From contig CAWDCT010000009.1 in NCBI GenBank assembly GCA_963800905.1, positions 80,681 through 144,680 on the forward strand: a stretch of 64,000 bases of DNA, given 5' to 3'. Below are positions 577 to 62,484 of the stretch, in pieces. The number at the start of each line of letters is the position of its first letter. Position 1 is the first letter of the stretch. The position numbers and the translations under genes are program-made. The notes under the pieces were generated by a model, which worked only from the letters and a program-made list of their open reading frames with translations, was not told the DNA's origin and did not search any database. The stretch comes from an uncultured Solirubrobacteraceae bacterium (GTDB taxonomy: Bacteria; Actinomycetota; Thermoleophilia; Solirubrobacterales; Solirubrobacteraceae).

Positions 577-814
577 GGGACGAACTTCTCGCTTGTAGGG
601 AGGCGGGTTGGGCGGCTTTCGGCCTCGAGATTCCGCGTAGCGGGATGCGCGCGCGGATTCGGGCTCGAAGCTGACGGCGGTTGGGGTTGTCTATGGGTCG
701 TATAGCGCGCACTGGACAAGCTCACGCGTTCGCAGCGACGCTCCGCCGCGGGCGCCGGCTCCACGATGCGACCGCCCTCCGGCCTTCCCTCAATGCAAGC
801 CGTTGACGTTCGCC
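577..814. repeat. Degenerate copy of the TIR-bounded intergenic palindromic element family (better copies at 8363, 17473, 44165)
   Basis: Right end CCCTCAATGCAAGCCGTTGACGTTCGCC (788-814) matches the CCCCACCCAGCGCAGTTGACGTTCGCC termini of the other copies. Left end GGGACGAACTTCTCGCTTGTAGGG (577-600) weakly matches GAAACGTCAACTGCGGCTGGGTAGGGG. The element ends 5 nt from the stop of the DsbA-like gene (819-821). Confidence 0.4.
683..723. repeat. About 40-nt palindromic mini-element, diverged copy (sibling of 28889..28928), nested in the degenerate element above
   Basis: GGGGTTGTCTATGGGTC-GTATAG-CGCGCACTGGACAAGCTC. The left arm is 15/17 identical to 28889-28905 and both are preceded by TT. The right arm is degenerate. 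Confidence 0.45.
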
Positions 815-4154: not shown

Positions 4155-6882
4155 TCACCTAACCCGCCGCGCCAGCTCGACCCGCGAGCGGACGCCGAGC
4201 TTGGCGTAGATGTTGCGCAGGTGCGCCTCGATCGTCTTGGCGCTCAGCACGAGCTGCTCGGCGACCTCGCGGTTCGTCCGGCCGCCGGCCACGAGCAGCG
4301 CGATCTCGCGCTCGCGCGCCGTGAGTGAACCGAGCGGGCCGTCCGTCGCGTCGCGCGCGGCGCGCACGACCCGATGCCCGAGCTTGCGCAGCTCGCGGAC
4401 GGCCTCGTCACGCCGTCGCAGCGCACCGAACCCGTCGAGCGCGGCCTCGGCCTCGATCAGCGCCGCGCGCGCCGCCTCGCGGTCGCCGGCCGCGGCGAGC
4501 GCGCGGCCCTCGGCGAGGCGCACGAGCGCCGCGGCCAGCGGAGCTCCGATGTCGTCGGACTGCCGCGCGGCGCCCACCGCCTCGTCGGGCCGCCCCTCGG
4601 CGAGCAGGACGGCCGCGGTGGCCCGCGCGGTCGTCGCCGCCGCCCAGCGCGTGCCGGCCTGAACGGCGGCCAGCGCCTCGCGGGCCGCGGCGAGGTCGCC
4701 GGCGGCGAGCTGGGCCTCGACGAGGTCGGCGGCCGCGGCCGGGCGGTCGGCCGGGACCACGAGCGGCATCGTCGCGCCGCCGAAGGCCTCCAGCAGCGTG
4801 GACGCCGCCCGCTCCGGGTTGCCGGCGGCGGTCAGCGCGGCGCCGAGGGACCAGCCCGGCTGCGCGGCCCGGTGGAACCCGGGCGGCGCCTCGGTCGTCT
4901 GCGCCTCCTCGGCCTCGCGCAGGGCGCCGGTGACGTCGCCGGCGGCGAGCCTCGCGCCGGCCAGCGCCGCCTGCGCGCCGACCAGCTGCTGGGCGTTGCC
5001 GGTCAGCCGCGCGCGGTCGAGCGCCTCCTCGCCGGCGGCCACCGCCTCGCTCAGCCGGCCCAGCTCGACCAGCGGGCGCACCAGCCCGTGGCTCACCACG
5101 ACCAGCACCAGCTCGCGCCCGGTGGCGCCCGCCATCCGGCCCGCGCGCTCCAGCAGCTCCAGCGCCGGCTCGAAGCGGCCGAGCGAGATCTCGGCCCGCG
5201 CGAGCATCCAGAGGCCGGGGAGCCGCCGCATCAGGTCGGTCTCGTCGAGCCGGCCGAACGCGTCCGTCGCCCGCTCGAGCGCGGCCACGGCGTCCGGTCC
5301 CGGAGCCGCGGCGCAAAGGGCGAAGGCGTCCAGGCCGAGCGCCGCCGCCTCGAGCACCGGGTCGCCGAGCACGCGCGCGTCGGCCAGCGCGTCGCTGCCC
5401 TGCGCGCGCGCCTCGTCGTAGTCGCAGGCGAGCATCACGGTGAGGCCGAGCGACAGGTGGAGCCGGATGCGATGCTCGGAGGGCTCCGCCGGCAGGTCGC
5501 GCAGCGCGACGTGCAGCCGCTCCAGCGCCTCCTGGCTGCGCCCGAGCCAGAACTCGGCGTTCGCGACCCGCACGGTCAGCGACTGTCGCTCCACCGGGTC
5601 GCGCTCGCGCGACAGCGCGTCGAGCAGCGTCGATCGCGCGGCGTCGGGGTCGCCCGCCGCGCTCTGCGCCTCGGCCAGGGCGATCTGCATCGCGCGCCGG
5701 TCCGGTGCGTCCGGCACGAGGCGCAGCGCGGCAGCGTGGAAGCGCGCCGCCGTCGCCGGGCGGGCGCCTGGAGCTCGCGCGCGGCGTCGACCAGCAGGGC
5801 GGCCGCTGTCTCGTCGCCGGGCTCGGCCGCGTGCTCGATGTGATGCGCGCGGGCGACGACTCCGGCGCCGCGGCGCTCGAGCCCCGCGGCGGCGCGGCCG
5901 TGGGCGGCGAGCCGCCACCCGCCGGGGGCGCCCTCGTAGACCACGTGGCGGACCACCGGATGCCGGAAGGCGAACCGGCGCGTCCCGCTCGCCGGGCGCA
6001 CGAGCGTGCGCGCGAGCAGGTCGTCGAGCCCGGCCAGCGCGGTCGCCTGGGGCAGCTCGGCGACCTCGGCGGCGAGCGCGGGATCGAACGGGTCGCCGAC
6101 GACGGCCGCCGCGTCGAGCACGCGCCGCGCGTCGGGCGCCAGCTCCGCGAGCTCGGCGGCGAGCGCGAGCGCGACGGTGGCGGGCGCGACGTTCCCGCGG
6201 GAACGCGCGAGCTGCTCGAGGTAGAACGGGTTGCCGCCGCTGGCGGGGTAGATCGCGGCGACGTCGCCGCCGACCAGCTCGACGGCCTCCGTCTCGCTCA
6301 GCGGCTCCAGCACCAGCCGCGTCAGGCGCTCCTGCCGCGCCGCGGCCGCGAGCGCGGTCGCCACCGGCTGCGGGCAGCAGACCCTCGCGCCCCGCCACCG
6401 CCAGCAGCACCGGGCCGTCGGGCGGGCGGCGGACGAGCGCGGCGACGGCGTCGAGCGAGCCGGGATCCGCCCAGTGCAGGTCGTCGAGCCACAGCACGAG
6501 CGGCCGCGGCGTGGCGAGGCGCGCGAGCAGGTCGCGCAGCGCGCGGTGCAGCCGGTGGCGGTCCGCCGCCGCGTCGCCGCCGCCGAGGAACGGGCAGCGC
6601 CGCCGCGTCCTCGATCCCCAGCCGCGCGACGCGCCGCTCTCCCAGCTCGCGCAGATGCGGCTCGAGCGCCTCGGCCCAGATCGCGTACGGCAGGTCCGCC
6701 TCGAACTCGGACGCCGCGGCGCCCAGGACCAGGCAGTCCGGCGCGGCGCGCTCGGCCAGCTCGCCGAGCAGGCGCGTCTTGCCGATCCCCGGCTCGCCCT
6801 CGACGGCGACGACCGGAGCGGCGGCGATCCGCCCGAGCGCGCGGTCGAGCGCATCGCGCTCTCGTTGGCGGCCGACCAGCAT
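4155..6882 (-). pseudogene. Large ATP-binding LuxR-family (LAL/MalT-like) regulator; about 3 frameshifts as given
   Basis: ATG 6882 gives MLVGRQRERDALDRAL...AVEGEPGIGKTRLLGEL (Walker A; frame of ORF 6322..6990). Then ...LVLWLDDLHWADPGSLDAV (Walker B; ORF 4155..6854 frame). Then ...LVLEPLSETEAVELV...GGNPFYLEQLARS...FAFRHPVVRHVVYEG (ORF 5576..7423 frame). Then TPR-like repeats and the C-terminal LuxR HTH LTAREREIALLVAGGRTNREVAEQLVLSAKTIEAHLRNIYAKLGV. Frame switches near 6600, 6385 and 5765. Confidence 0.8.
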
Positions 6883-7958: not shown

Positions 7959-8363
7959 ATGAGCGAACGCTGCGTGATCGTCGTCGACGAGGGTCTGCCG
8001 CCCGGTCTGGCCGCCAACGCGGCCGCCGTGCTCGCGCTGACGCTCGGCGCCCGCGAGCCCGGGCTGGTCGGCGCCGACTTCGTCGACGCGGACGCGCGAG
8101 CCGCATCCCGGCCTGATCCCGATCGGCCTGCCCGTGCTGCGCGCGCCGCGGCCGAGCTCGTCGAGATCCGGCGCCGGGCTGCCGCGGACGGCGTGGGCGT
8201 CGTCGACTTCCCGGTGTTCGGGCAGCAGACGAACGACTACGACGAGTTCCGGGGGATGGTCGCGGCGACGCCGGCGGCCGAGCTGTCGTACCTGGGCGTC
8301 GCGCTGGCGGGTTCGGCGCGGGCGGTGCGGCGGTTGACCGGGCGGCTGGCGCTGCTCCGATGA
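7959..8363 (+). pseudogene. DUF2000-family protein; two compensating frameshifts as given
   Basis: MSERCVIVVDEGLPPGLAANAAAVLALTLGA...FVDAD, then HPGLIPIGLPVLRA only in a second frame (about 8108-8148), then AAELVEIRRRAAADGVGVVDFPVFGQQTNDYDEFRGMVAATPAAELSYLGVALAGSARAVRRLTGRLALLR*. Confidence 0.7.
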
Positions 8364-8539
8364 ACGTCAACTGCGCTGGGTGGGGAGTGGCGAGCACGGC
8401 TAACGTGCAATCGGGCGCGGTCGCGGTGCGCCCGATTGCACGTTAGGTGACCCCCGCCGGATCCGACTCCGTGCATCTGCACGCGCCCAGCGCGACGGAT
8501 TGCACGCCACCTGCCGCCCCACCCAGCGCAGTTGACGTT
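8363..8539. repeat. TIR-bounded palindromic intergenic element, copy with a distinct core (MITE/REP-like)
   Basis: Termini AACGTCAACTGCGCTGGGTGGGG (8363-8385) and CCCCACCCAGCGCAGTTGACGTT (8517-8539) are perfect reverse complements. The core has a perfect 18-bp stem, TAACGTGCAATCGGGCGC / GCGCCCGATTGCACGTTA, at 8401-8445. It fills the gap between convergent genes (stops at 8363 and 8546). Confidence 0.8.
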
Positions 8540-8545
8540 CGCCGC

Positions 8546-16679: not shown

Positions 16680-17496
16680 GCGAGAAGGCGCGCGGCGTCG
16701 CGCTTGTCGTCGCCGCCGTCAGCTCGCTCCAGTTCGGGGCCGGGTTCGCCGTCACGCTGTTCGACGAGCTCGGCCCCGCGGGGGCGGCCTTCCTGCGCCT
16801 CTCGATCGCCGCCGTCGTGCTGGTGGCGATCTGGCGGCCGCGGCCGCACGGCGAGCTCGGGCTCGCCGCGGCCTTCGGGGTCACGCTCGGCCTGATGAAC
16901 CTCTGCATCTACGAGGCGATGGACCGCATCCCGTTGGGCATCGCGGTCACGATCGAGTTCTGGGGGCCGCTCGCCGTCGCGGTGGTCGGCTCGCGGCGGC
17001 CGCTCGACCTGCTGTGGGTGGCGCTCGCCGCCGCCGGCATCGTCCTGCTCGCCGATCCGGGCGGCTCGCTCGACACCGTGGGCGTCGCCTTCGCGATCGC
17101 CGCCGGCGGCCTGTGGATCGGCTACATCCTCCTGTCGGCGCGGGTCGGCGCGGTGTACCCGGGCGGGACCGGGCTGGCGATCGCGATGGTCTTCGGGGCG
17201 CTGGTCACGCTGCCCTTCGGCGTCGGAACCGACCTGCTCGCCCCGGAGATGCTGGCCGCCGGCGCCGTGGTCGCGCTCGCGTCGTCGGTGATCCCGTACT
17301 CGTTCGAGCTCGAGGCGCTGCGGCGCCTGCCGGCGCGCGTGTTCGGCGTGCTGATGTCGTTGGAGCCCGCGGTCGCCGCGCTCGCCGGGCTCGTCGTGCT
17401 CGGGCAGGCGCTGGCGCTGACGAGTGGGTGGCGATCGGGCTGGTGGTGGTGGCGAGCGCCGGCATCACCGCGGAAACGTCAACTGCGGCTGGGTAG
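16676..17496 (+). pseudogene. EamA/DMT-family transporter (RhtA-like exporter); 1 frameshift near 17420
   Basis: ATG 16676 overlaps the acylase stop (ATGA). MSEKARGVALVVAAVSSLQFGAGFAVTLF...GLMNLCIYEAMDRIPLGIAVTIEFWGPLAVAVV...SSVIPYSFELEALRRLPARVFGVLMSLEPAVAALAGLVVLGQAL, then WVAIGLVVVASAGITAETSTAAG* in the frame of ORF 17014..17496. The last 8 codons and the stop lie inside the repeat at 17473. Confidence 0.8.
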
Positions 17497-17640
17497 GGGG
17501 AGCGGGGAGGCCGGCGGAGCCGGTTTCCTTCGTCGAATCCTGCCTGGGGGTCGGATAGCGACCCCTATCCAGGACTCGACGTCGAACTCCACCGCCCGGC
17601 TGGCTCCCTCACTCCCCCACCCAGCGCAGTTGACGTTTCC
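17473..17640. repeat. TIR-bounded palindromic intergenic element (MITE/REP-like), reference copy
   Basis: Ends GAAACGTCAACTGCGGCTGGGTAGGGG (17473-17499) and CCCCACCCAGCGCAGTTGACGTTTCC (17615-17640). Central hairpin CCTGGGGGTCGGATAGCGACCCCTATCCAGG. About 88% identical by eye to the reverse complement of 44165..44298. Confidence 0.8.
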
Positions 17641-23250: not shown

Positions 23251-24368
23251 CTGAGATAGCCCTCCGCGACCATGCGGTCGAAGTCGTGCACCGTGCCCTC
23301 GACCTGCGTGAAGCGGCCGGGCGTGTAGCCGGCCGAGCCGAGGCCGAGCTGCGCGAGCTCGCAGACGCCCCAGTCCTGGCGGTTGACGAGATCCCAGAAG
23401 TCGACCGCGTCCTTGGAGTCGAACCCCTCGCGCTCCATCGTCTCGGGCTCGAAGAACCACTCGCACACGACCTCGGTGCGGCCGGCCCCGCGCGGCCACA
23501 GCGTGTGCAGCATCACGTAGTCCGGGTGCAGCGAGACGAGGCAGTTCGGGAAGATCGCGAAGTACAGGACCTTGCGCGGGTCGACCCCCTCGATCACCGG
23601 CCGGGTGAGGCCGCCGTTGTTGGTCGTCATCGTCTCGGCGCCGGCGTTGAGGCTCATCGAGCCGCCGCACCAGGCGCCCGCGCCCTCGTAGTCGTGCCCG
23701 GTCATGTAGTTGCTGAGGCGGTTGAGCTCCGGGTGCACGCCCGGGCAGTGCAGGCACTCGGAGTAGTTCTCGACGACCGCCTTCCAGTTCGCCTTGACGT
23801 CGTAGTCGATCCGGGCGGCGCGCTTGAGGCCGGCGTTGCGGTATGCCTCCAGGTGCTCCGCGAGCGCGCCGATGTGGTCGGCGAGCGGCGGCGCCTGGCC
23901 CGAGGCGTCCGCGAACACGAGGCCGCCGAGCGTCTCCGTGCGGATCTCCCGAAGGCCGTTGCAGGCCGGGTCGAAGTCCGTCAGCTCGTCGGTGTGCGGG
24001 GCGTTCTTGAGCGAGCCGTCGAAGCCGTAGGTCCAGGCGTGGTACGGGCACTGGAGGCGGCGCTTGGTTCCCTCGCGCTCGGTGACCAGCCGCGAGCCGC
24101 GGTGGCGGCAGACGTTGTAGAAGCCCTTGTCGCCCACGAACAGCAGGCTCTCGCCCGCGATCTCGGCCGTCAGGAAGTCGCCGCGGCCCGCGAAGGCCGA
24201 CGCGTGGCCGACGCACATCCAGCCGCCGAGGAAGAAGTTGCGGGCCTCCCACTCGGCGACGGCCTCGTCGGTGTAGGCGCGCGCGGGGAGCAGGGACGCC
24301 TCGTGCAGCGGGCGCAGGGTGGGCTCGAGCTCTTCGGCCGTGAACGGCGCGTCGGTCGCAACGGTCAT
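23247..24368 (-). CDS. Rieske [2Fe-2S] non-haem-iron oxygenase, alpha-subunit type (GbcA/CntA/choline-monooxygenase-like group)
   Basis: ORF 23247..24368 (373 aa), intact. Rieske motif CRHRGSRL...CPYHAWTY. Catalytic-domain motif NYSECLHCPGVHPEL. No beta subunit or reductase is adjacent. Confidence 0.9.
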   Translation of the reverse strand: MTVATDAPFTAEELEPTLRPLHEASLLPARAYTDEAVAEWEARNFFLGGWMCVGHASAFAGRGDFLTAEIAGESLLFVGDKGFYNVCRHRGSRLVTEREGTKRRLQCPYHAWTYGFDGSLKNAPHTDELTDFDPACNGLREIRTETLGGLVFADASGQAPPLADHIGALAEHLEAYRNAGLKRAARIDYDVKANWKAVVENYSECLHCPGVHPELNRLSNYMTGHDYEGAGAWCGGSMSLNAGAETMTTNNGGLTRPVIEGVDPRKVLYFAIFPNCLVSLHPDYVMLHTLWPRGAGRTEVVCEWFFEPETMEREGFDSKDAVDFWDLVNRQDWGVCELAQLGLGSAGYTPGRFTQVEGTVHDFDRMVAEGYLR

Positions 24369-24376
24369 GGGCGGCA

Positions 24377-24404
24377 GACTACAACTTCGTGCAATTGACT
24401 ACAA
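24377..24404. promoter_or_regulatory. Candidate operator in the divergent Rieske / FAD-oxidoreductase promoter region
   Basis: Direct repeat GACTACAA at 24377-24384 and 24397-24404 (20-nt spacing), in the most AT-rich part of the 63-nt intergenic region between ATG 24368 (-) and ATG 24432 (+). Two TetR genes lie in the operon. Confidence 0.3.
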
Positions 24405-24431
24405 GGTCAGGATTGCGTAGGGTGCCGGGGC

Positions 24432-26079
24432 ATGAGCAGCAATGGACATCACCCGACCTTCGACGCGATCGTCGTCGGCGGCGGCCACAACGGCCTCACC
24501 GCCGCTGCCTACCTCGCCCGCGCGGGCCTGCGCGTGTGCGTGCTGGAACGCCGCGACATCCTCGGCGGCGCGTGCGTGACCGAGGAGGTGTGGCCCGGCC
24601 ACCGCGTCTCGCGCGCCTCCTACGTGGTCTCGCTGCTGCATCCCAAGGTGGTCGACGAGCTCGAGCTCAAGCGGTTCGGGTACGAGGTCCACCCGCTCGA
24701 CCCCGCCTACTCGACGTTCCCCGCGGACGGGCCGCCGCTGTTCTTCTTCAACGACGAGGCGGCGACCATCGAATCGCTGCGCCGGCACTCGCCGCGCGAC
24801 GCCGAGGCTTACCCGAAGTTCCAGCGCGATGATCGAGCGGATCGCCGAGTTCCTGCGCCCGATGATGCTGCGGCCGCCGCCCGCGCTGCGGCTCGCGCCA
24901 CCCGGGCGATCTCCTCGAGCCTGCTGCGCGAGGCCGGCCGCGCCGCCGGCCTGAGCCGGCGCGACCTGCAGGACTTCTACCGCGTGATGACGATGTCGGT
25001 CGGCGACCTGCTCGACGACTGGTTCGAGCACGACGCCTTCAAGGGCGCGTTCGCGTCGACCGGCGTGGTCGGCGTCTGGGCCGGCCCGCGCACGCCCGGT
25101 ACGGCCTACAACCTGCTCCACCACGAGCTCGGGGAGATCGACGGCGTGCCGGGGCTGTGGGGGCACGTGAAGGGCGGCATGGGCGCGATCTCGATGGCGA
25201 TCGCGCGCAGCGCCGAGGCCGCCGGCGCGACGATCCGCACCGGCGCCTCGGTGGTCTCGATCGACGTCGACGGCGGCCACACCGTCGGCGTCACGCTGGA
25301 CACGCGGCGAGCAGCTGCGGGCGCCGGTCGTCATGTCCGGCGCGCACCCGAAGACCACGGTGCTCGACATGGTCGGCGCCGAGCACTTCCCCGACGAGGT
25401 GGTCGAGGACATGCGCCGCTACAAGACGCGCGGCGGCTCGGTCAAGGTCAACTGGGTGCTCTCGGAGCCGCCGCGCTACGAGGGCGTGAGCGACGAGGAC
25501 CAGGCGCGGCTGATCCGCTCGGGCGTGGCGTTCTGCCCGTCGATCGACTACCTCGAGCGCGCGTGGCAGGACGCGTGCCGCGGCGTGCCGTCGGAGGCGC
25601 CGTACCTCGAGGTCGAGTGCCCGTCGTCGATCGACTCGACGCTGACCGACGACGGCACCTTCGTGATGACGATGTTCACGCAGTACGGGCCGTACGACGA
25701 GGCCGGCTGGCCCGAGGGCTCGCGCGAGGCGTACGCCGACCGCTGCCTGGAGATCCTCGCCGAGCGCGCGCCGAACGTGCGCGACGCGGTCATCCACCGC
25801 GAGGTGCTGGCGCCGCCGGACCTCGAGCGCATCTTCGGCCTCGTCGGCGGCTCGATCTTCCAGGGCGAGCAGGGCCTGGACCAGATGGCGTTCATGCGGC
25901 CGACGCCGGCCCTGGCGCAGTACGCGACCCCGGTCGACGGGCTGTACCTGTGCGGCGCCGGGACGCACCCGGGCGGCGGCGTGATGGCGCTCGGCGGGCA
26001 CAACGCCGCGCAGCGGGTCCTGCACGACCAGCGCTGGCACCGCGCGCGGCGCCGCGTGCGGGAGGCTCTGCCGGTATGA
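24432..26079 (+). pseudogene. CrtI/phytoene-desaturase-family NAD(P)/FAD-dependent oxidoreductase (COG1233-like), paralog 1; about 4 frameshifts as given
   Basis: FDAIVVGGGHNGLTAAAYLARAGLRVCVLERRDILGGA (GxGxxG). MIERIAEFLRPMMLRPPPAL is present only in a second frame (about 24826-24905). ...GLWGHVKGGMGAISMAIA.... After about 25307 it continues in ORF 25333..26079 (...GGSIFQGEQGLDQMAFMRP...LYLCGAGTHPGGGVMALGGHNAA...). Confidence 0.8.
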
Positions 26080-27231
26080 CCGCGATCGCCCCCGACCTCG
26101 ACGTCGTCAGCCGCGCGCGCACGTTCGTCGAGGACGTGCTGATGCCGCTGGAGGAGAAGGCCGAGCGAGCCGGGGGCCGACTGCCGGAATCGGACGTCGA
26201 GCGGATCCGCTCGGCAGCCATCGGCCGCGGGTCTGGCGGGCGGGTCGCACGCACGCGAGCACGGAGGCCAAGGGCTGGTCGAAGCTCGAGTGGGTGCTGG
26301 TCGAGGAGCAGTACGGGCGCTCGACGAACGCACTCTCGTGGCACGTGCCGAGCGCCTACAACGTGCTGGCGTCCGGCACTGCCGAGCAGATCGACCGCTA
26401 CCTCCAGCCCGCCCTGCGCGGCGAGCTCCAGGACGCCTACGCGGTGACCGAGGCGAACGCGGGGTCCGACCCCTCGCAGATCTCGACCACCGCCGTGCGG
26501 CGCGACGGCGGCTGGGTCATCAACGGCGAGAAGTGGTTCGTCACCTACGGGCGACATCGCCGCGGTCTACATCGTGGTGGCGATCGCCGACGGGGGCGCC
26601 GACGCTGTTCCTCGTCGATCGCGCATGCGACGGCATCGAGGTGGTCGACGACCCGCCGTTCACGCACTCGTATCCGCACGGGCATCCGACGATCCGGTTC
26701 ACCGACGTGTTCGTGGGCGACGACGCGGTGATCGGCGGCGTCGGCGAGGGCGACGCGCTGCAGCGCGCCTGGTTCACCGAGGAGCGGATCGGGATCGCGG
26801 CGCGCGGCGTGGGCGCGATGTGGCGGCTGCTCGACGAGGCGACCGCCTGGGCGCTGTCGCGCGAGCAGGGCGGCTCGCGGATCATGGACTACCAGGGCGT
26901 GTCCTTCCCGCTGGCGGACTCGGCGGCCGACGCGGCCGCCGGGCGCGCGCTGACGCTGGAGGTCGCGCGGCTGGCCGACGAGGGCGCCGATCCGAAGGTC
27001 GTGCACGCCAAGGCGTCGATGGCGAAGCTGTTCGTGAGCGAGGCGGCGTACCGCTGCGCCGACCGCGCCGTGCAGGTGTTCGGCGGCCGCGGCTACATGC
27101 GGACCAACGTGGCCGAGCGGTTCCTGCGCGAGCTGCGGGTGGACCGCATCTGGGAGGGCACGAGCGAGATCCAGCGGCTGATCGTCGCGCGCGCGCTGGA
27201 GCGCCGCGGGGTGGAGCGGACGCTTCACTAG
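26076..27231 (+). pseudogene. Acyl-CoA dehydrogenase-family protein; about 3 frameshifts as given
   Basis: ATG 26076 overlaps the upstream stop (ATGA). MTAIAPDLDVVSRARTFVEDVLMPLE...; EWVLVEEQYGRSTNALSWH...AYAVTEANAGSDPSQISTTAVRRDGGWVINGEKWFVT (ORF 26294 frame); ...ERIGIAARGVGAMWRLLDEA...ASMAKLFVSEAAYRCADRAVQVFGGRGYM...RVDRIWEGTSEIQRLIVAR (ORF 26290..27231). Confidence 0.85.
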
Positions 27232-29193
27232 TGGACCGGCTGCTTCATCCGCGATCGGTCGCCATCGTGGGCGCGAGCGAGCGGCCGTCGACGTACTCGT
27301 CGGAGACGCTCCTGAACCTGCGCCGGCTGGGCTTCGAGGGGGACGTCTGGGGCGTCAACCCGCGGCGCTCGTCGGTCTACGGGCTGCCGTGCTTCTCGTC
27401 CCTGAGCGACCTGCCGTCGGCGCCCGACGCGGTGGTGGTCGCGATCCCGGCGCCGGGCGTGCCGGCTGTGATCGAGGAGGCGGGCGCGATCGGGTCGGGC
27501 GGCGCCGTCGTGTACGCGGCCGGGCTTCGGTGAGTCGGAGGCGGGCGCCGCGCTCGAGCAGGCATTGAGGGAGGCCGCTGGGCGGTACTCGCTGCCGGTC
27601 TGCGGGCCGAACTGCGACGGGCTGGTGTCGCTGTGGTCGCGCGCCGCGCTGTGGGGCGACGCGCTGGCGGCGCCCGAGCCGGGCCACGTCGCGCTGGTGT
27701 CGCAGAGCGGCAACCTCGTCGTGAACGCGCTGGCGACGCGGCGCGGGCTGCGGCTGCACACCGCGGTGTCGAGCGGCAACGAGACCGTGGTCACGACGCC
27801 CGACTGGGTCGAGCACCTCGCGCGCGAGCCGGGCGTGCACTCGATCGCGCTGCTGGTCGAGGCCGAGGGCGACGGCGCGCGGCTGTGCGAGGCGCTCGCG
27901 GTGTGCGCCGACGTGGGCGTGGGCGTGGCGGTGCTGAAGGTCGGCGCCTCGGCCGCGCGGCGCGGCCGCGGCGGCCGCGCACACCGGCGCGGTGGCCGGC
28001 GACCACCGCGTCTTCCGCGCGCTGATGGAGGAGGCGGGCGCGGCGTGGGCGGCCGACGTGCACGAGCTGCTCGAGCTGGCGAAGGCGCTGGCGGTGCGGG
28101 ACGCGCGGCCGCGCGGCGGCGGGCTGGCGATCCTCACGTGCTCGGGCGGCGACTCGGGGCTCGGCGCCGACGAGGCGGACCGGCTCGGGCTCGACCTGCC
28201 CGCGTTGTCTGCCGTCGACGGTCGCGTCGTTGCGCGCGCGGCTGCCGGCCGCCGCGACGGTCGCCAACCCGCTCGACTACACGGCGATGATCTGGGGCGA
28301 GGTCGAGACGCTGCGCGACCTCGTGCGCGACGGTCGGCGAGGACCCGGCGATCGGCCACGTGCTGGTCTTCTACGACCGGCCGCCGGGGATCGCCGGCCA
28401 TTCGGCCGAGAGCTGGGACGCCGTCGAGGAGGGGATCCTGGCCGGCGCCGCCGTCAGCCCGGTGCCGGTGATGGTGGCGGCGACGCTGCCGGAGCTGCTG
28501 GACGACGAGGCCGCCTGGCGCTTCGCGGAGGCCGGCGTGCCGGCGATCGCGGGGCTGCGGACCGGCGTGGCGGTCGCGGCCGCGCTGGCGGCGCCGCCCG
28601 GTCAGCGCCGGCGTCTGCGAGAGATCGCGCGCGTTCGCGGATCGCCGCGTGGCGGGGCGCTGGCTCGCCGAGCACGAGGCGAAGGCTCTGCTTCGTTCGC
28701 GCGGCGTGCCCGTCGTTCGTGGACGGCTTGCATTGAATGAGGACGACGCCGTTGCGGCGTTCCATGAGCTGGGGGGGCGCGTGGCGTTGAAGGTGTCGAG
28801 CGCCGCCGTGCAGCACAAGACCGCGATCGGAGGCATCGCCCTCGACGTCCGCGACGAAGCCGGCGTCCGCGAGGCATTTCGGCGGCTTGGGGTTGTTTGT
28901 GGGTCCATATCGACCCACAGACAACCCCAGCCGAGTTCTCGTCGAGGCCATGGTCGACGCCCGGCGACGAGGTCTTCGTCGCGGTCCGCTACGACGCCGT
29001 CGTTCCCGTCCTCGTCATCGGCCGCGGCGGCACCGACGTCGAGCGCTCACGACGACGTCGACGATCATCCCGCTGCCGACGCCCCGCCAAGCGGACATCG
29101 TGAAGGCGCGCCGAAGGCCTCGCCCTACTCGAATGCAACCCAGTGATCGGCGGCGTCGTCGTCGATGCCACCGCCCAGGAGGCCGCCCCGTGA
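27231..29193 (+). pseudogene. ADP-forming acyl-CoA synthetase (acetate--CoA ligase family: CoA-binding, succinyl-CoA-synthetase-like and ATP-grasp domains); about 6 small frameshifts plus a 40-nt insertion
   Basis: GTG 27231 (TAGTG overlap) gives VDRLLHPRSVAIVGASERPS...GVNPRR...DAVVVAIPAPGVPAVIEEAG. Then PVCGPNCDGLVS...VALVSQSGNLV (ORF 27565). GLAILTCSGGDSGLGADEADRLGL. ATP-grasp WLAEHEAKALLRSRGVPVVRG...GGRVALKVSSAAVQHKTAIGG. ...VLVEAMVDA...DEVFVAVRYDAVVPVLVIGRGGTDVE. The end ...LLECNPVIGGVVVDATAQEAAP* was read by hand. Confidence 0.75.
28889..28928. repeat. 40-nt palindromic mini-insertion inside the acyl-CoA synthetase coding region
   Basis: GGGGTTGTTTGTGGGTC CATATC GACCCACAGACAACCCC (17-bp arms, 1 mismatch). 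23/40 GC versus a much higher local GC. Deleting exactly these 40 nt joins ...CGG CGG CTT|AGC CGA GTT CTC GTC GAG... = RRL|SRVLVEAM, linking the two coding frames. Confidence 0.75.
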
Positions 29194-30775
29194 ACGCCAT
29201 CGCCCAGCAGCTCGGCGAGGTCGGGCTGCCCGCGCCCGTCGCCGAGCTCGCCTCCCGCCGCTGGGACGCGGTGATCGTCGGCGGCGGCCACAACGGCCTC
29301 ACCGCGGCCGCCTACCTCGCCCGCGCCGGCAAGTCGGTGCTCGTGCTCGAGCGGCGCGAGCGCCTCGGCGGCGCGTGCACGCTCGAGCGGCCGTTCGCCG
29401 ACCCGCAGTACGTGGTCAGCCCGTGCGCGTACGTCGTCGGCCTGCTCGACGAGCTGGTCATCGAGGAGCTCGGACTCCGGCAGCGCGGCCTCCAGTTCCA
29501 CGTCGCCGACCCCAACCTCTGGGTCCCGTTCGACGACGGCACGAGCTTCGGCCAGTGGCTCGACGACGACCGCACGAACGCCGACCTCACCGCGCTCGGC
29601 GTGAGCGGCAAGGACCGCGAGGGCTACTGGGCCTACGAGCACCTCTTCGACGAGATCCGCCGCCGCCTGCGCACCGGCGAGCGCGACACCTGGGTCGGCG
29701 AGTCGCCCACTCGCGCCGAGATCGAGGAGCTGCTCCGAGGCGACCAGACGATGATCGACGTCGTCTTCGAGGCCAGCATGGCCGAGGTGCTCGACGACCA
29801 CATGGACGACCAGCGGCTCAAGGACGCGCTGTTCGGCCAGGGGATCATCGGCGCCTGGGCCGGCCCGAAGGACAAGGGCACCGCGTCGATCAAGCTGATG
29901 CACTTCCAGGGCGACCTCGAGGGCCAGGGTCCCGTGTGGGGCTACGTGCGCGGCGGGATGGGCATGGTCAGCTTCGCGATCGCCGACGCCGCCCAGGAGG
30001 CCGGCGCCACGCTGGCCACCGGCGTCCCGGTCGGCGAGATCCTGCCCGGCGAGGGCGTCGTGCTCGAGGACGGCACGCGGATCCACGCCGACACGGTCAT
30101 CTGCAACGCCGACCCCAAGCGCCTGCTGAGCATGGTCAGCGACCTGCCGAGCGAGTTCGAGCAGCGCCTGCGAGGACTGGAAGATCCGCAGCCCCGTCGT
30201 CAAGTTCAACGCCTCCCTCACCCGCCTTCCCAACTGGACCGCCGCGCCCGGCCAGGACTTCCCCGCGCGCGCGACCGTCGACGTCACCACCGGCCTCGAC
30301 GACGCCCAGCGCGACTTCGAGCGCTGCACGCGCGGCGAGGCGGCGGTCGGCTTCGGCGAGATCTACGTCCAGACCGGCTACGACCCCACGCCGGCCCCGC
30401 CGGCAAGCACCTGATGAGCGTCTTCGGCCAGTACGCGCCGTACGACTTCGACTGGGCCAACCGCCGCGACGAGGTCGCGCAGCCAGTTCATCGACCTGAT
30501 CGCCCGCTTCGCGCCCGACTTCCCCGACGCGCTCGAGCACTACGAGGTGCTCGGCCCGCCCGACATCGAGCAGCGGATCGGCCTCACCGCGGGCAACATC
30601 TTCCAGGGCGAGACGATGCCCGACCAGATGTGGGAGCACCGCCTCTGCGTCTCGCACGCCGGTGCCCGGGTTGTACATGTGCGGCGCCGCAACCCACCCG
30701 GCGGGCAGCGTGATCGCCCTCAACGGCCGCAACGCTGCGATGGCCGTCCTCGAAGACGCCCAAGTTCTCACCTGA
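29190..30775 (+). pseudogene. CrtI/phytoene-desaturase-family NAD(P)/FAD-dependent oxidoreductase, paralog 2; about 3 frameshifts as given
   Basis: GTG 29190 (GTGA overlap) gives VNAIAQQLGEVGLPAPVAELASRRWDAVIVGGGHNGLTAAAYLARAGKSVLVLERRERLGGA...WGYVRGGMGMVSFAIADAA... (ORF 28887..30713 frame). ...LTAGNIFQGETMPDQMWEHR.... The end ...GLYMCGAATHPAGSVIALNGRNAAMAVLEDAQVLT* was read by hand (TGA 30773-30775). Confidence 0.8.
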
Positions 30776-30804
30776 CGGTTCGCAGTTGTCGATGGCGTCG
30801 ACAT

Positions 30805-32576
30805 ATGGCACATTCCCCGTCCATGGGTCGGCGCCCGCATGCGCCAAGGGGGCTGAGGGTCAAACGCGCCGGGCCGGCGCGGCGTGACGTTGACGTGGAA
30901 GAAGCCGCGCGGCGGGACCGAGCCTGAGGCCTACCTCGTCTTCCGCGACGGGCGCCGCATCGCCCGCACGAAGCGGCGTACCTACGTCGACCGCCGCGCC
31001 AAGCCCGGCCGCCACCGCTACGTGGTCGTGGCGGTCGACGCCAAGGGTCGCCGCGGCCGCCCGTCCCAGATCGTGCGCGCCCGCGTCCCGGCGCGGGCGC
31101 CGGCCCTGCCCGCACCGCCGGCCGGCCCGGACCCGCCGCCGCTCCCGGCGCCCAACCTCGGCAGCACGCTCACGGCGGCGATGGTCGACCGCCTGTTCTG
31201 GCGCGCCGGCTTCGGCGCGACGCAGGCGCAGCGCGACGCGTGGACCGGCCGCGGCCACCTCAACCTCGTCGACTGGCTGCTCGACACGCCGGCCTCGCTC
31301 GGGCCCGACGGCGACGCCGCCGCTGACGCGGCATCCAACGGCGGATCGACCCGCTGGCGTCCGAGGACGAGCTCGTCATGGAGTGGCTGGACCGCATGCA
31401 GCGCGCGGTCAATCCGCTGCGCGAGCGCATCGCGTTCTTCTGGCACCGCCACTGGGCCGTCAGCCGCGACGACGGCATCCCGGTCGACATGGCTGCTCGC
31501 CTACCGCGACCGGCTGCTGCGCGTCGCCGATCCGGCGCAGAGCTTCCGCCAGCTCGCGTGGGAGATGACGACGACCGACGCCGCGATGTCGATGTACCTC
31601 AACGGCAACCAGAACGTGCGCGGCCGGCCGAACGAGAACTACGCGCGCGAGCTGATGGAGCTCTTCTGCCTCGGGCCGACCGCGCCGAACGGGGACCCGA
31701 ACTACACGCAGGACGACGTCGCGGGGCTCGCGCGGGCGCTCACCGGCTGGCGGCTGAACTCGGACGACACGAGCCCGAACTACGGCAGGGTCACGTTCAG
31801 CACGAACCACTTCGAGAGTGGCCGCCAAGAACGTTCCTCGGCGTGTCGCTCCCCGCGCTCGCGCCGTCCGCCGTGACGCCGGCTCACGGCCCTGCCGCCG
31901 TCAATGTCGCGCTCGACGCCGTGCTCGGCCACCCGAGCCACAGCGCAGTACCTGATCCGCAAGCTGTGGAGCGAGTTCATCGCCACGCCGATCCCCGACG
32001 CCACGCTCGCCGAGTTGATGGCCGCTCTACGACCCGTCCGGCCCGCTGCGGCCGCTCCTGCGCGGAATCCTCGGCCATCCGCTGATCTTCGAGTCGCTCG
32101 ACGAGCCGAACCTGATCAAGCCGCCGATCGTCTACCTGGTCGGCGTCCTGCGCCAGCTCGGCGCCCCGATGAAGGGCAACTACATGACCGGAGCCCTGAC
32201 CAACATGCAGCAGCGGCCGTACCGGCCGCCGAACGTCGCGGGCTGGGAGGGCGGCATGTCGTGGCTCAACACGAACACGGTCCAGGGCCGGTTCGACGCA
32301 GTCCTGCGCACGCAGTTCCTGCTCTACAGCAACAACGCGAACAGCTACCCGCGGCCCGCGCTGGTGGAGGTCGACGGCGGAGCGGCCGAGACGCCCGCCG
32401 CGCTGGTGGAGCGCGCGCACGCGTCGGCCGGGCGGCCATGGCTGGCGCCGGCGACCCGCGACGCGCTGCTGGCCTACGCCACCACGGCGCCGACCGGCAG
32501 CGTGCAGCAGCGGCGTCAGCGCTTCTACACGGTGCAGGCCCTCATGCTCGGCGGCCCCGACGGACAGGTGATGTGA
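30805..32576 (+). pseudogene. DUF1800-family protein with an N-terminal FN3-like module; about 5 frameshifts as given
   Basis: PRGLRVKRAGPA|VTLTWKKPRGGTEPEAYLVFRDGRRIARTKRRTYVDRRAKPGRHRYVVVAVD (FN3-like). DUF1800 core pieces across frames: ELVMEWLDRMQRAVNPLRERIAFFWHRHWAVS, MSMYLNGNQNVRGRPNENYARELMELFCLG, LIRKLWSEFI, and PMKGNYMTGALTNMQQRPYRPPNVAGWEGG...RFYTVQALMLGGPDGQVM* (ORF 32169..32576). Confidence 0.75.
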
Positions 32577-37470: not shown

Positions 37471-37552
37471 GGTGGGGTTCCCGAGCGGTCAAAGGGGACG
37501 GACTGTAAATCCGTTGGCTCAGCCTTCGCAGGTTCGAATCCTGCCCCCACCA
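37471..37552 (+). tRNA. tRNA-Tyr: tRNA-Tyr (anticodon GTA), long variable arm, no encoded CCA
   Basis: GGTGGGGTTCCCGAGCGGTCAAAGGGGACGGACTGTAAATCCGTTGGCTCAGCCTTCGCAGGTTCGAATCCTGCCCCCACCA. Acceptor GGTGGGG/CCCCACC, anticodon loop CTGTAAA, T-loop GGTTCGAATCC. Closely resembles E. coli tyrT. Confidence 0.95.
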
Positions 37553-44164: not shown

Positions 44165-44298
44165 GTCGGCGAACTGCGGCTGATTTCCGCGTCGAATCCT
44201 GGATAGGGGTCGCTATACGACCCCAGGGCAGGATTCGTCGAAGGAAACCCGCCCCGCCGGCGTCCCCGCTGCCCCACCCAGCCGCGGTTGACGTTCGC
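44165..44298. repeat. TIR-bounded palindromic intergenic element, shortened copy in inverse orientation to 17473..17640
   Basis: Its reverse complement aligns with copy 17473: AACGTCAACCGCGGCTGGGTGGGGCAGCGGGGACGCCGGCGGGGCGGGTTTCCTTCGACGAATCCTGCCCTGGGGTCGTATAGCGACCCCTATCCAGGATTCGACG. The far end is truncated to CAGCCGCAGTTCGCCGAC. It lies between convergent genes (stops at 44139 and 44345). Confidence 0.8.
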
Positions 44299-62408: not shown

Positions 62409-62481
<73 letters not shown>

Positions 62482-62484
62482 CTA

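Follow-up and report, generated by a model that had tools for sequence, protein, structure and literature searches.

The synthetase locus and its palindromic segment

The DNA analysed here, referred to as the window, is a 64,000-nucleotide stretch from a member of the Solirubrobacteraceae, soil Actinomycetota known mostly from metagenome-assembled genomes (MAGs). At the locus under study lies a gene for an acyl-CoA synthetase, within which a palindrome, a short remnant of a tail and one additional base can be delimited:

27231 to 29193, plus strand: ADP/NDP-forming acyl-CoA synthetase gene (acetate--CoA ligase family), with CoA_binding_2, Succ_CoA_lig and ATP-grasp_5 domains (Pfam on its pieces)
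28889 to 28928, plus strand: hairpin module of a repeat family, 40 nt here and 39 nt (13 codons) in orthologues
28912, plus strand: extra G, CATATC[G]ACCC, located by alignment and missing from L001, L002, L003 and L063
28929 to 28934, plus strand: tail remnant AGCCGA (Ser-Arg) of a spacer and tail, located by alignment; 27-42 nt in orthologues, ending in CCCTCAATGCGCAGTTC

Broken by single-base insertions, the synthetase gene is distributed over approximately nine frame pieces, whose stitched translation is 85-93% identical to orthologues of 659-663 aa, and the locus is syntenic with L001, L002 and L063. The palindrome described in an earlier note on this DNA, GGGGTTGTTTGTGGGTC-CATATC-GACCCACAGACAACCCC, is present as claimed, with 17-nt arms and one wobble, and folds strongly as single-stranded DNA, reaching -23.6 kcal/mol versus a shuffle mean of -7.8 (z = -7.5; none of 200 shuffles as good). 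The same GC content of 23/40 was obtained, and the codons said to be atypical of the genome find expression in a GC3 of 0.54, versus about 0.9 for the synthetase gene. The left arm and loop code for G-V-V-C-G-S-I-S and the right arm for P-T-D-N-P. The flanking frames are likewise as reported, the upstream one ending ...REAFRRL and the downstream one reading SRVLVEAM, and removal of 28889-28928 does join them.

The segment in orthologues and distant homologues

In intact orthologues at 85-89% protein identity, the palindrome is likewise present, in frame, as a 39-nt hairpin encoding G-A/V-V-C-G-S-I-S-P-T-D-N-P, followed by the 27-42 nt tail. Read in frame within the intact 659-aa genes of L001, L002 and L003, the insert runs CTT GGG GCT GTT TGT GGG TCC ATA TCA CCC ACA GAC AAC CCC ACC CCC TCC GAG CCG CCC CTC AAT GCG CAG TTT GTC. 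All eight orthologue DNAs contain the 39-nt hairpin, within inserts of 66-81 nt or, in L061, 144 nt; the lengths found (66, 69, 72, 81 and 144 nt) are multiples of three, contain no stop and leave the ORF continuous, and the window insert departs from this rule solely through one extra G. Its tail is 27-33 nt shorter than that of the orthologues, which amounts to an in-frame deletion. The description of a discrete 40-nt insertion foreign to the gene thus does not hold, and removal of 40 nt restores the frame because 40 = 39 + 1.

Among about 106 full-length homologues, one large clade bears an insert of 22-33 aa, with nested losses within it, and the peptide in the clade (22-27 aa) follows G-[AV]-V-x-x-x-I-x-x-x-D-N-P-...-L-N-A-Q-F. 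Where identity falls to 70% or below, homologues show no more than a linker of 5-9 aa at this point, and the insert was therefore gained by an ancestor. The insert-bearing clade spans about 75-90% protein identity, and the insert is older than its divergence. The hairpin has been lost in the nested lineages P0017, P0019 and P0026, in which the gene is apparently intact; the insert-less site in L059 reads RRL-DAPR-ILVEEM. Orthologues with an equivalent in-frame insert at the same point had been named beforehand, in the earlier note, as the observation that would count against it, and such orthologues occur across a large clade of the gene family, which also disposes of the suggestion of a recent inactivating insertion.

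Compositionally, the insert stands apart from its host genes throughout the orthologue set (GC3 of 0.63-0.70 versus 0.88-0.94), and its central Ile codon is ATA in six of eight sequences (window, L001, L002, L056, L057 and L060). In the AlphaFold2 model of the insert-bearing protein P0002 (mean pLDDT 90.4), the sole segment with pLDDT below 50 comprises residues 554-572, within the insert (552-575), which is flanked in the model by a helix (541-551) and a strand (575-580). The insert probably forms a variable, disordered surface loop in the helix-strand linker of the ATP-grasp domain.

A family of palindromic repeats in Solirubrobacteraceae

The earlier note had proposed searching for copies outside coding sequences, and these exist: a third copy of the palindrome arm lies at 683-699, where 0.04 matches would be expected by chance, and four intergenic members of a repeat family occur in the window, at a density of about one copy per 16 kb:

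581 to 812, plus strand: long-variant intergenic copy, in which 581-602 is the 5' terminal motif, 682-699 the left arm TGGGGTTGTCTATGGGTC and 783-812 the 3' terminal repeat CCTTCCCTCAATGCAAGCCGTTGACGTTCG
8362 to 8540, plus strand: full intergenic copy, whose terminal inverted repeats of 24-26 nt (GAACGTCAACTGCGCTGGGTGGGG / CCCCACCCAGCGCAGTTGACGTTC) agree without mismatch over 24 nt and whose inner hairpin, at 8400-8446, has a perfect stem of 19 bp
17473 to 17639, minus strand: full intergenic copy, with near-perfect terminal inverted repeats of ~27 nt and a type-2 inner hairpin (GGGGTCGCTATCCGACCCC core)
44170 to 44297, minus strand: intergenic copy whose terminal repeats are one long (…GGTTGACGTTCG) and one short (CGAACTGCGGCTG), the inner hairpin occupying 44190-44240

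In the full element, a spacer separates the terminal repeat, CGAAC[GTCAAC]TGCG...GGGAG, from one or two 39-nt hairpins, and a second spacer lies between these and the inverted terminal repeat; the terminus occurs in two forms, with and without GTCAAC. Elements measure 110-240 nt, are non-coding and carry terminal inverted repeats of 22-27 nt; all 14 aligned hairpins start with GGGG and finish with CCC[C/G]/CCTC, and GC3 periodicity vanishes at every copy outside the synthetase gene. Within the synthetase insert, the hairpin corresponds to the inner hairpin of the family and the tail to its right terminal repeat. In nhmmer comparisons, the copy at 581-812 matches L009 (E = 1.5e-21), the copy at 17473-17639 matches an element in L026 (E = 1.5e-5), and an element in L039 covers the synthetase insert from hairpin through tail (E = 3.8e-6).

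The arm pattern gave 26 matches in a genome-collection scan, six in two Solirubrobacteraceae MAGs versus some 20 scattered in unrelated taxa; the latter, in unrelated taxa or Streptomyces coding DNA, show neither right arm nor tail and were taken as chance. A metagenome scan also returned 26 arm matches, of which only L039, L044, L052 and L055 are family members (high-GC, with hairpin and tail common to all four) and the remaining 22 are low-GC marine coincidences. A covariance model built on the 39-nt hairpin revealed no additional type-1 hairpins in the window and, outside the loci from which it was built, gave only a weak match in L012. Fuzzy searching for short terminal-repeat forms proved too permissive (1-10 matches in shuffled windows), and near-exact matches alone were used. 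BLAST of the full element against PLSDB yielded no plasmid match, no distant terminal-repeat pair lies within the window, and neither an autonomous element nor a transposase with terminal repeats that match turned up in the DNA examined. No consistent direct repeat flanks the two full-length copies that have near-perfect terminal repeats, the number of copies being small.

Two candidate traces near the insert were rejected. The 35 nt upstream of it (GACGAAGCGGGCGTCCGCGAGG...), considered as a degenerate left terminal repeat or target-site mimic, score marginally above shuffles (7-137 of 300 reach the scores), and the insert-less L059 scores equally well; CGAACTGCGGGCACTGAGGAG, which occurs in the L061 gene, belongs to its native coding sequence (GRTAGTEEE) and is coincidental.

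The literature search found no paper on Solirubrobacter repeats and no actinobacterial example in PMC10969869 and PMC3733652. Altogether, the family appears to be an abundant, undescribed group of modular, MITE-like palindromic repeats of Solirubrobacteraceae, the dispersed copies of which suggest mobility. Of the earlier proposal of a mobile palindromic element inside a coding sequence, the dispersed repeat family and the location within a gene stand; a fresh arrival and a split gene do not.

Stem covariation and upkeep of the hairpin

Across the orthologues, the inner stem alters in sequence while complementarity is kept. In the stem alignment, 87% of cells are paired versus 37-47% in slid registers, double changes occur at seven of the 17 stem pairs, and 26 compensatory cells are counted versus 13.6 in shuffles, none of 500 of which reaches 26. 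At least six different inner stems are found, each fully complementary, and the encoded peptide varies over the same region (CGSISPT, DCRISTV, YARITCT and HGPIRTT). The stem variants TGGGTC and TGCACG recur in intergenic copies of other genomes, the distribution of hairpin variants is incongruent with protein distances, and the intergenic copies contain U.G wobbles that allow pairing only on the GGGG...CCCC strand.

Such a pattern invites the view that the hairpin is a selected functional mRNA or DNA element, for instance an RNA stability or processing site, a translational pause before the ATP-grasp strand or a hairpin-protein site. The covariation of the inner stem under a varying peptide, the conserved rare ATA of the loop, the unameliorated GC3 and the strand-specific wobbles all favour selection; however, repeated gene conversion by dispersed copies could give the same pattern, with variants incongruent with protein distances as observed, as could intrastrand templated repair of palindromes, and the nested lineages that lost the hairpin retain an apparently intact gene. 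Furthermore, no Rfam family matches: at gathering score, the whole-window search returned two tRNAs only, a permissive search of 400-1100 gave nothing credible, and ARAGORN reported only tRNA-Tyr and tRNA-Thr. A selected function is accordingly possible and on balance doubtful.

As to origin, the selected-hairpin reading is compatible with descent of the segment from the repeat family.

More broadly, and more tentatively still, the coding 39-nt hairpin might be actively maintained, either as an RNA/DNA signal under selection or through repeated overwriting, by gene conversion or a cassette-like replacement, by "master" variants of a still-active repeat family. The diverse complementary stems, the variants shared with intergenic copies, their incongruent distribution, the conserved rare ATA and the unameliorated GC3 may be noted as hints in this direction. 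Were overwriting by master variants to operate, a selfish palindrome would continually rewrite a protein loop while the enzyme remained functional.

The extra G and the indel load of the window

Turning to the apparent splitting of the gene, alignments and the repaired translation trace the loss of frame at the palindrome to G28912 alone. Its deletion alone restores the frame to give RRLGVVCGSISPTDNPSRVLVEAM, matching GAVCGSISPTDNP of the orthologues, and the repaired translation reads ...REAFRRLGVVCGSISPTDNPSRVLVEAMVDA. The palindrome had been said to differ in kind from the indels of 1-2 nt elsewhere in the window, but the frame break is one extra base of the same class. Against L001, L002 and L063, four genes spanning 7.5 kb contain about 25 (21-25) single-base insertions versus only 2-3 deletions, and these genes keep high GC3 in every frame piece together with 85-93% protein identity. 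At this density about 0.13 insertions are expected per 40-nt stretch, so that one inside the palindrome is unremarkable. Being one of at least 25 window-specific single-base insertions, G28912 most probably reflects a mistake in sequencing or assembly and not a real mutation.

The position of the extra base nonetheless lends itself to another account. A mechanism of quasi-palindrome mutation is well established (Ripley; Lovett), and G28912 forms the 17th stem pair, a C-G pair at the boundary of loop and right arm. It could accordingly be a genuine +1 for which the opposite arm of the quasi-palindrome served as template, a strand switch having perfected the stem by supplying the missing pair at the loop base, and the synthetase would then be a pseudogene. 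The independent assembly L063 also shows a length change within its hairpin, an anomaly of +2 with an in-frame TAG inside, and the hairpin may for this reason be a genuine indel hot spot. In addition, the window +1 site at 29060 is common to L063, a different species, and not every indel of the window is therefore a private random error. Against a templated origin of G28912 stand the excess of window-specific insertions in the same four genes, the amino-acid identity and GC3 preserved in every frame piece, and the expectation per 40 nt given above, which together render a real +1 improbable.

Origin of the segment

We consider it highly probable that the palindrome is an old, in-frame, translated part of a dispersed repeat, and that the gene looks split through one extra G. 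An ancestor of the synthetase clade would have gained a hairpin, a spacer and a right terminal repeat, 66-81 nt in all, which landed in frame in the helix-strand linker of the ATP-grasp domain and has since been read through as a loop of 22-27 aa, the hairpin remaining a hairpin; the window shows in addition an in-frame deletion of 27-33 nt from the tail and the extra G, most probably an error. The direction of transfer was presumably from the mobile or repeated element into the gene and not the reverse, and the loop is probably both translated and tolerated.

Recent transposition into the coding sequence of a discrete 40-nt palindromic mini-element, which would have split the gene and either inactivated it or been excised or bypassed, is very improbable. 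In its favour are the frame restored by exact removal of 40 nt, the recurrence of the arm at 683-699 and codons atypical of the genome; against it, orthologues from several species and many metagenomes have this palindrome at the corresponding position, in frame and at 39 nt, the insert predates the divergence of its clade, the unit acquired comprises hairpin and tail (66-81 nt), and the hallmarks of bypass are absent. A spurious palindrome created by a hairpin adapter, a chimeric read or a fold-back read can practically be dismissed, error-rich as the window clearly is, since short-read JGI metagenome contigs and several independent assemblies show the palindrome at this very site and its arms are no copy of local gene sequence.

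Implications

On the preferred reading, descent from an in-frame repeat copy, what appeared to be a gene-splitting mobile element would be an ordinary single-base indel within a native, repeat-derived coding segment, and in an error-rich assembly the fact that removal of N nucleotides restores the frame is no evidence of insertion when N = 3k + 1. The locus would add a new case of the kind known from Rickettsia palindromic elements (RPEs), this time in Actinomycetota, with a palindromic element co-opted or tolerated as a protein loop. Because the hairpin is kept by compensatory change across species, it also offers a usable natural system for asking why intragenic palindromes persist, whether through selection on RNA/DNA structure, gene conversion or templated repair.

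Comparison with known systems

Programmed bypass, as in T4 gene 60 and the yeast mitochondrial byps, skips an untranslated gap between a take-off codon, followed at once by a stop, and a landing codon that matches it. The analogy to the yeast mitochondrial GC clusters, raised in the earlier note, fails on these points: the CTT at take-off is followed by GGG and not by a stop, no CTT stands at the landing site, and orthologues translate through. Nor does the gene need bypass to be explained. Quasi-palindrome frameshift hot spots (Ripley model; E. coli thyA/lacZ reporters) offer a likeness in the +1 between loop and stem by which an imperfect inverted repeat becomes perfect, but the window +1 is most likely one of many random assembly insertions.

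REP/BIME sequences and GTAG- or CGTC-tagged palindromic repeats are short, have stems of 8-9 bp and are associated with RAYTs (Di Nocera et al. 2013, PMC3733652). The hairpins studied here resemble them as short (39-nt) imperfect palindromes with stem and loop subfamilies, some intragenic and plausibly active as RNA hairpins. They differ in starting with TGGGG and ending with CCCCA, in a stem of 17 bp, in being embedded between long terminal repeats and in having no RAYT gene in sight. None of the 14 aligned hairpins has a terminal GTAG or CGTC tag, CGTC occurring only within the outer terminal repeat, which speaks against membership of the tagged REP class.

The family is also like bacterial MITEs and modular repeats (Correia/NEMIS, ERIC, BOX, RUP and Nezha), which it resembles in its length of 110-240 nt, non-coding character and 22-27 nt terminal inverted repeats, in intergenic, strongly folding copies that fill whole intergenic gaps, and, like BOX with its boxB, in a variable number and type of inner hairpins. 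Terminal inverted repeats, small size and lack of coding capacity, as expected of MITEs, are all found at 8362-8540 and 17473-17639. The family differs from MITEs in that no target-site duplication could be recognised at the few copies compared, that no parent IS or transposase was found for it and that its terminus takes two alternative forms.

A close parallel is with RPEs, palindromic elements of about 100-150 nt inserted in frame in Rickettsia protein-coding genes (Ogata et al. 2000, via PMC10969869 and PMC3733652). Here the analogy drawn in the earlier note is borne out, in that the segment derives from a dispersed palindromic family with intergenic copies in the window and in related genomes and one copy inside an ORF, where the insert is a multiple of three, lacks a stop, would add a peptide at a predicted surface loop, is kept in orthologues of related species and is absent from more distant homologues. 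RPE-like inserts would be expected where the fold tolerates them, in a surface loop, and judging from the structural model the insert position is such a loop. The differences are that the host gene belongs to Actinomycetota and to DNA of 72% GC, the likeness being one of behaviour; that the synthetase holds only the inner hairpin and one terminal repeat (66-81 nt) whereas RPEs are whole elements; that only one intragenic copy occurs in about 160 kb examined; and that the inner stem covaries among the synthetase orthologues. By analogy, the synthetase insert may thus be said to work like an RPE rather than to be a member of the RPE family.

The palindrome and its host gene

Positions 28889-28928 read GGGGTTGTTTGTGGGTC-CATATC-GACCCACAGACAACCCC, in a window of about 72% GC. 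As single-stranded DNA, this palindrome folds to -23.6 kcal/mol, against -7.8 +/- 2.1 for dinucleotide shuffles (z = -7.5; 0 of 200 fold as well), and it ranks best of its kind among the short-loop inverted repeats of the whole window. It lies in the first of the following genes.

27231-29193, plus strand: NDP-forming acyl-CoA synthetase gene (CoA_binding_2, Succ_CoA_lig and ATP-grasp_5 domains)
37471-37552: tRNA-Tyr (GTA) gene
62409-62482: tRNA-Thr (GGT) gene

The protein reads ...DVRDEAGVREAFRRL on the 5' side and, in another frame, SRVLVEAMVDA on the 3' side; the left arm and loop encode G-V-V-C-G-S-I-S in the upstream frame, and the right arm P-T-D-N-P in the downstream one. The earlier note described palindrome and flanking frames accurately, and removal of 28889-28928 does fuse the two frames as it claimed. 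Its reading of them as a mobile 40-nt mini-insertion splitting the gene is nevertheless wrong.

Intact orthologues of 659-663 aa read ...REAFRRL-GAVCGSISPTDNPTPSEPPLNAQF-VLVEAM..., encoded by CTT GGG GCT GTT TGT GGG TCC ATA TCA CCC ACA GAC AAC CCC ACC CCC TCC GAG CCG CCC CTC AAT GCG CAG TTT GTC. Their hairpin is 39 nt, or 13 codons, in frame. The window departs from them by one extra G at 28912 (CATATC[G]ACCC) and by a tail, the segment 3' of the hairpin, that is 27-33 nt shorter with the frame kept; removing only G28912 yields the translation RRLGVVCGSISPTDNPSRVLVEAMVDA. Since the window's 40 nt are thus 39 plus one extra G, the argument from a length not divisible by three falls, and the equivalent in-frame insert in orthologues, which the earlier note itself had named as refuting, contradicts a discrete insertion in this genome.

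Origin of the extra base

About nine frame switches interrupt the synthetase gene, and the GC3 phase plot places further switches in the adjoining genes. Alignment of 24.3-31.9 kb to the syntenic intact loci L001 (MAG MFD09212.bin.1.130), L002 (JGI) and L063 revealed 21-25 or more private single-base insertions across four genes, and only 2-3 small deletions. G or C accounts for 19 of the first 21 insertions, and most do not extend a homopolymer. Because this excess of insertions coincides with 85-93% amino-acid identity to orthologues and a GC3 of about 0.9 in every frame piece, the pattern at 24300-31900 points to systematic sequence, assembly or read error rather than gene decay. Solirubrobacteraceae MAGs supply the closest proteins; among long-contig database assemblies of the gene, those encoding P0007, P0029, P0056, P0064, P0084 and P0110 are also frameshifted. 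Two segments near the junctions of the acyl-CoA dehydrogenase and amine-oxidase genes, 26084-26104 (21 nt) and 30917-30962 (46 nt), are extra in the window relative to L001 and L002; they could reflect genuine indels or merely the ends of alignments.

G28912 itself is most probably a sequence error. With a private insertion roughly every 300 nt across the four genes, a 40-nt stretch would be expected to hold some 0.13 by our own arithmetic, so that one inside the hairpin is unremarkable. This rate argues against a real, quasi-palindrome-templated +1 mutation, which we regard as unlikely, although G28912 supplies the 17th stem pair, as a templated +1 would, L063 carries a hairpin with +2 and a TAG, and a +1 at window 29060 is common to L063.

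In L063, the MAG contig encoding P0007, the in-gene hairpin (4653-4693) is 41 nt with an in-frame TAG, and its +2 and a later +1 cancel out; the in-gene hairpin may be a hot spot for indels or errors. The +1 at 29060 (GTCGA[C]GATC; about 4860 in L063) is absent in L001 and L002. L063 represents a different species (89.7% nucleotide identity), and the common base is either real or a systematic error tied to its sequence context.

A dispersed repeat family

Another copy of the arm lies between genes, at 683-699. In a scan of 185,579 species genomes, TGGGGTTGTCTRTGGGTS matched 26 times, with six of the matches in two Solirubrobacteraceae MAGs (the synthetase site itself included); four further copies, of high GC, came from a metagenome scan. 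Apart from the one in the synthetase gene, all copies are intergenic, in no fixed orientation to their neighbours. Compared side by side, they have their parts in a common order: the 5' terminal motif CGAAC(GTCAAC)TGCGGGCATTGAGGGAGG, in this or a variant form, then after a spacer the 39-nt hairpin (TGGGGTTGTCTATGGGTC-loop-GACCCATGAGCAGCCCCA; two in locus L026), and after a second spacer a 3' motif, CCTCCCTACAAGCGGGCAGTTCG, that is an inverted copy of the 5' motif. Searching with element queries (nhmmer) added the last three of these window copies:

581-812: repeat-family copy, long variant, intergenic
8362-8540: repeat-family copy; terminal inverted repeats of 24-26 nt, with 24 nt matching perfectly
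17473-17639: repeat-family copy; near-perfect terminal inverted repeats of about 27 nt
44170-44297: repeat-family copy

Each of these three fills an intergenic gap and has a different inner hairpin; a GGGTCG(C)TATAGCGAC-like core occurs in 17473-17639, 44170-44297 and the long variant. The window thus holds four intergenic copies of this modular palindromic family, with terminal inverted repeats (GAACGTCAACTGCGCTGGGTGGGG...), about one per 16 kb. At locus L017, a long-variant element is adjoined by a tandem array (4695-5072) in which the 5' terminal motif (...CCCCGCTTGTAGAGAGAGTCGGGGTGG...) recurs about nine times in units of 43 nt. The family has no match in Rfam or PLSDB and is undescribed in the literature searched.

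The element at locus L039 aligns with the synthetase insert from hairpin start to tail end (nhmmer, E = 3.8e-6 in 176 kb), and the insert tail differs from the terminal repeat at 2-3 positions (L060 and L001). These matches suggest that the synthetase gene took up the inner hairpin and right terminal repeat of a family element.

Age and structural setting of the insert

About 106 full-length homologues were aligned and placed on a neighbour-joining tree with the insert columns left out. Where one large clade has 22-33 aa, the linker of the outgroups (64-74% identity) is 5-9 aa long, RRL-AxNGSxA-VLVERM; nested members of the clade, P0017 (DAPR), P0026 (GASP) and P0019, have mostly lost the insert, and it is expanded in P0025 and P0060 (two tandem LNAQFE tails; gene in L061). 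Judged from these sequences, the segment is an insertion, but an old one. Its GC3 is 0.63-0.70 against 0.88-0.94 for the genes, and the central Ile codon is the rare ATA in six of eight sequences. The AlphaFold2 model of P0002 (mean pLDDT 90.4, pTM 0.89) places the insert, 552-575, between a predicted helix (541-551) and strand (575-580), and nowhere but in 554-572 does pLDDT drop below 50.

In the P0060 gene (L061, 2720-2865) the in-frame insert is expanded to 144 nt; its hairpin, of 49 nt, differs in sequence, and it has two tails in tandem, LKAQFEP and LNAQFE. P0025 has a similar tail duplication. In clade members P0018, P0022, P0027 and P0052, SNGSPGETRGLTP replaces the hairpin peptide; the palindrome that the protein sequence implies at the DNA level, CAGCCCCGG-AGA-CCGGGGCTG, resembles a small second hairpin 3' of the main one in the intergenic copy of L052 (1040-1075).

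Maintenance of the hairpin

Eight synthetase and six intergenic hairpins all have the same length, 39 nt, and their alignment needs no gaps. In the 17-bp stem, 87% of cells are paired, against 37-47% with the 3' partner slid by 1-3 columns; seven pairs have changes on both sides, and compensatory cells number 26, where shuffles average 13.6 and none of 500 gets as high. Inner stems in the gene include TGGGT/ACCCA, CTGTCG/CGACAG, TGCACG/CGTGCA, TGGTCC/GGACCA, CACGA/TCGTG, GTGCGC/GCGCA and, in L063, GTCGCG/CGCGAC, and the encoded peptides vary freely. Two of these variants are also intergenic in another genome (L026a, close to the window/L002 type, and L026b, close to the L060 type). The distribution of variants is incongruent with protein distance: for instance, P0002/3, P0010/11 and P0015 all carry the GSISPT type, and each is nearer to carriers of other variants. 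Such upkeep is compatible with selection for the structure and equally with conversion and templated repair acting repeatedly.

Comparison with known systems

Translational bypass, an analogy offered by the earlier note, is ruled out by the in-frame segment of the orthologues and the absence of bypass signals. Family elements are small, lack coding capacity and have terminal inverted repeats, all hallmarks of MITEs; neither a target-site duplication nor a parent transposase could be shown. The family differs from the REP superfamilies, defined by a GTAG or CGTC tag, in having no such tag. In the literature searched, the phylum apparently has no previously described case of an in-frame intragenic palindromic repeat. 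The comparison with Rickettsia RPEs was right in spirit: in-frame fixation of dispersed palindromic repeats has been described for RPEs, as well as for REPs and MITEs inside genes (PMC10969869; PMC3733652), and the synthetase segment likewise belongs to a dispersed palindromic family and has become fixed, in frame, in a loop that probably tolerates it.
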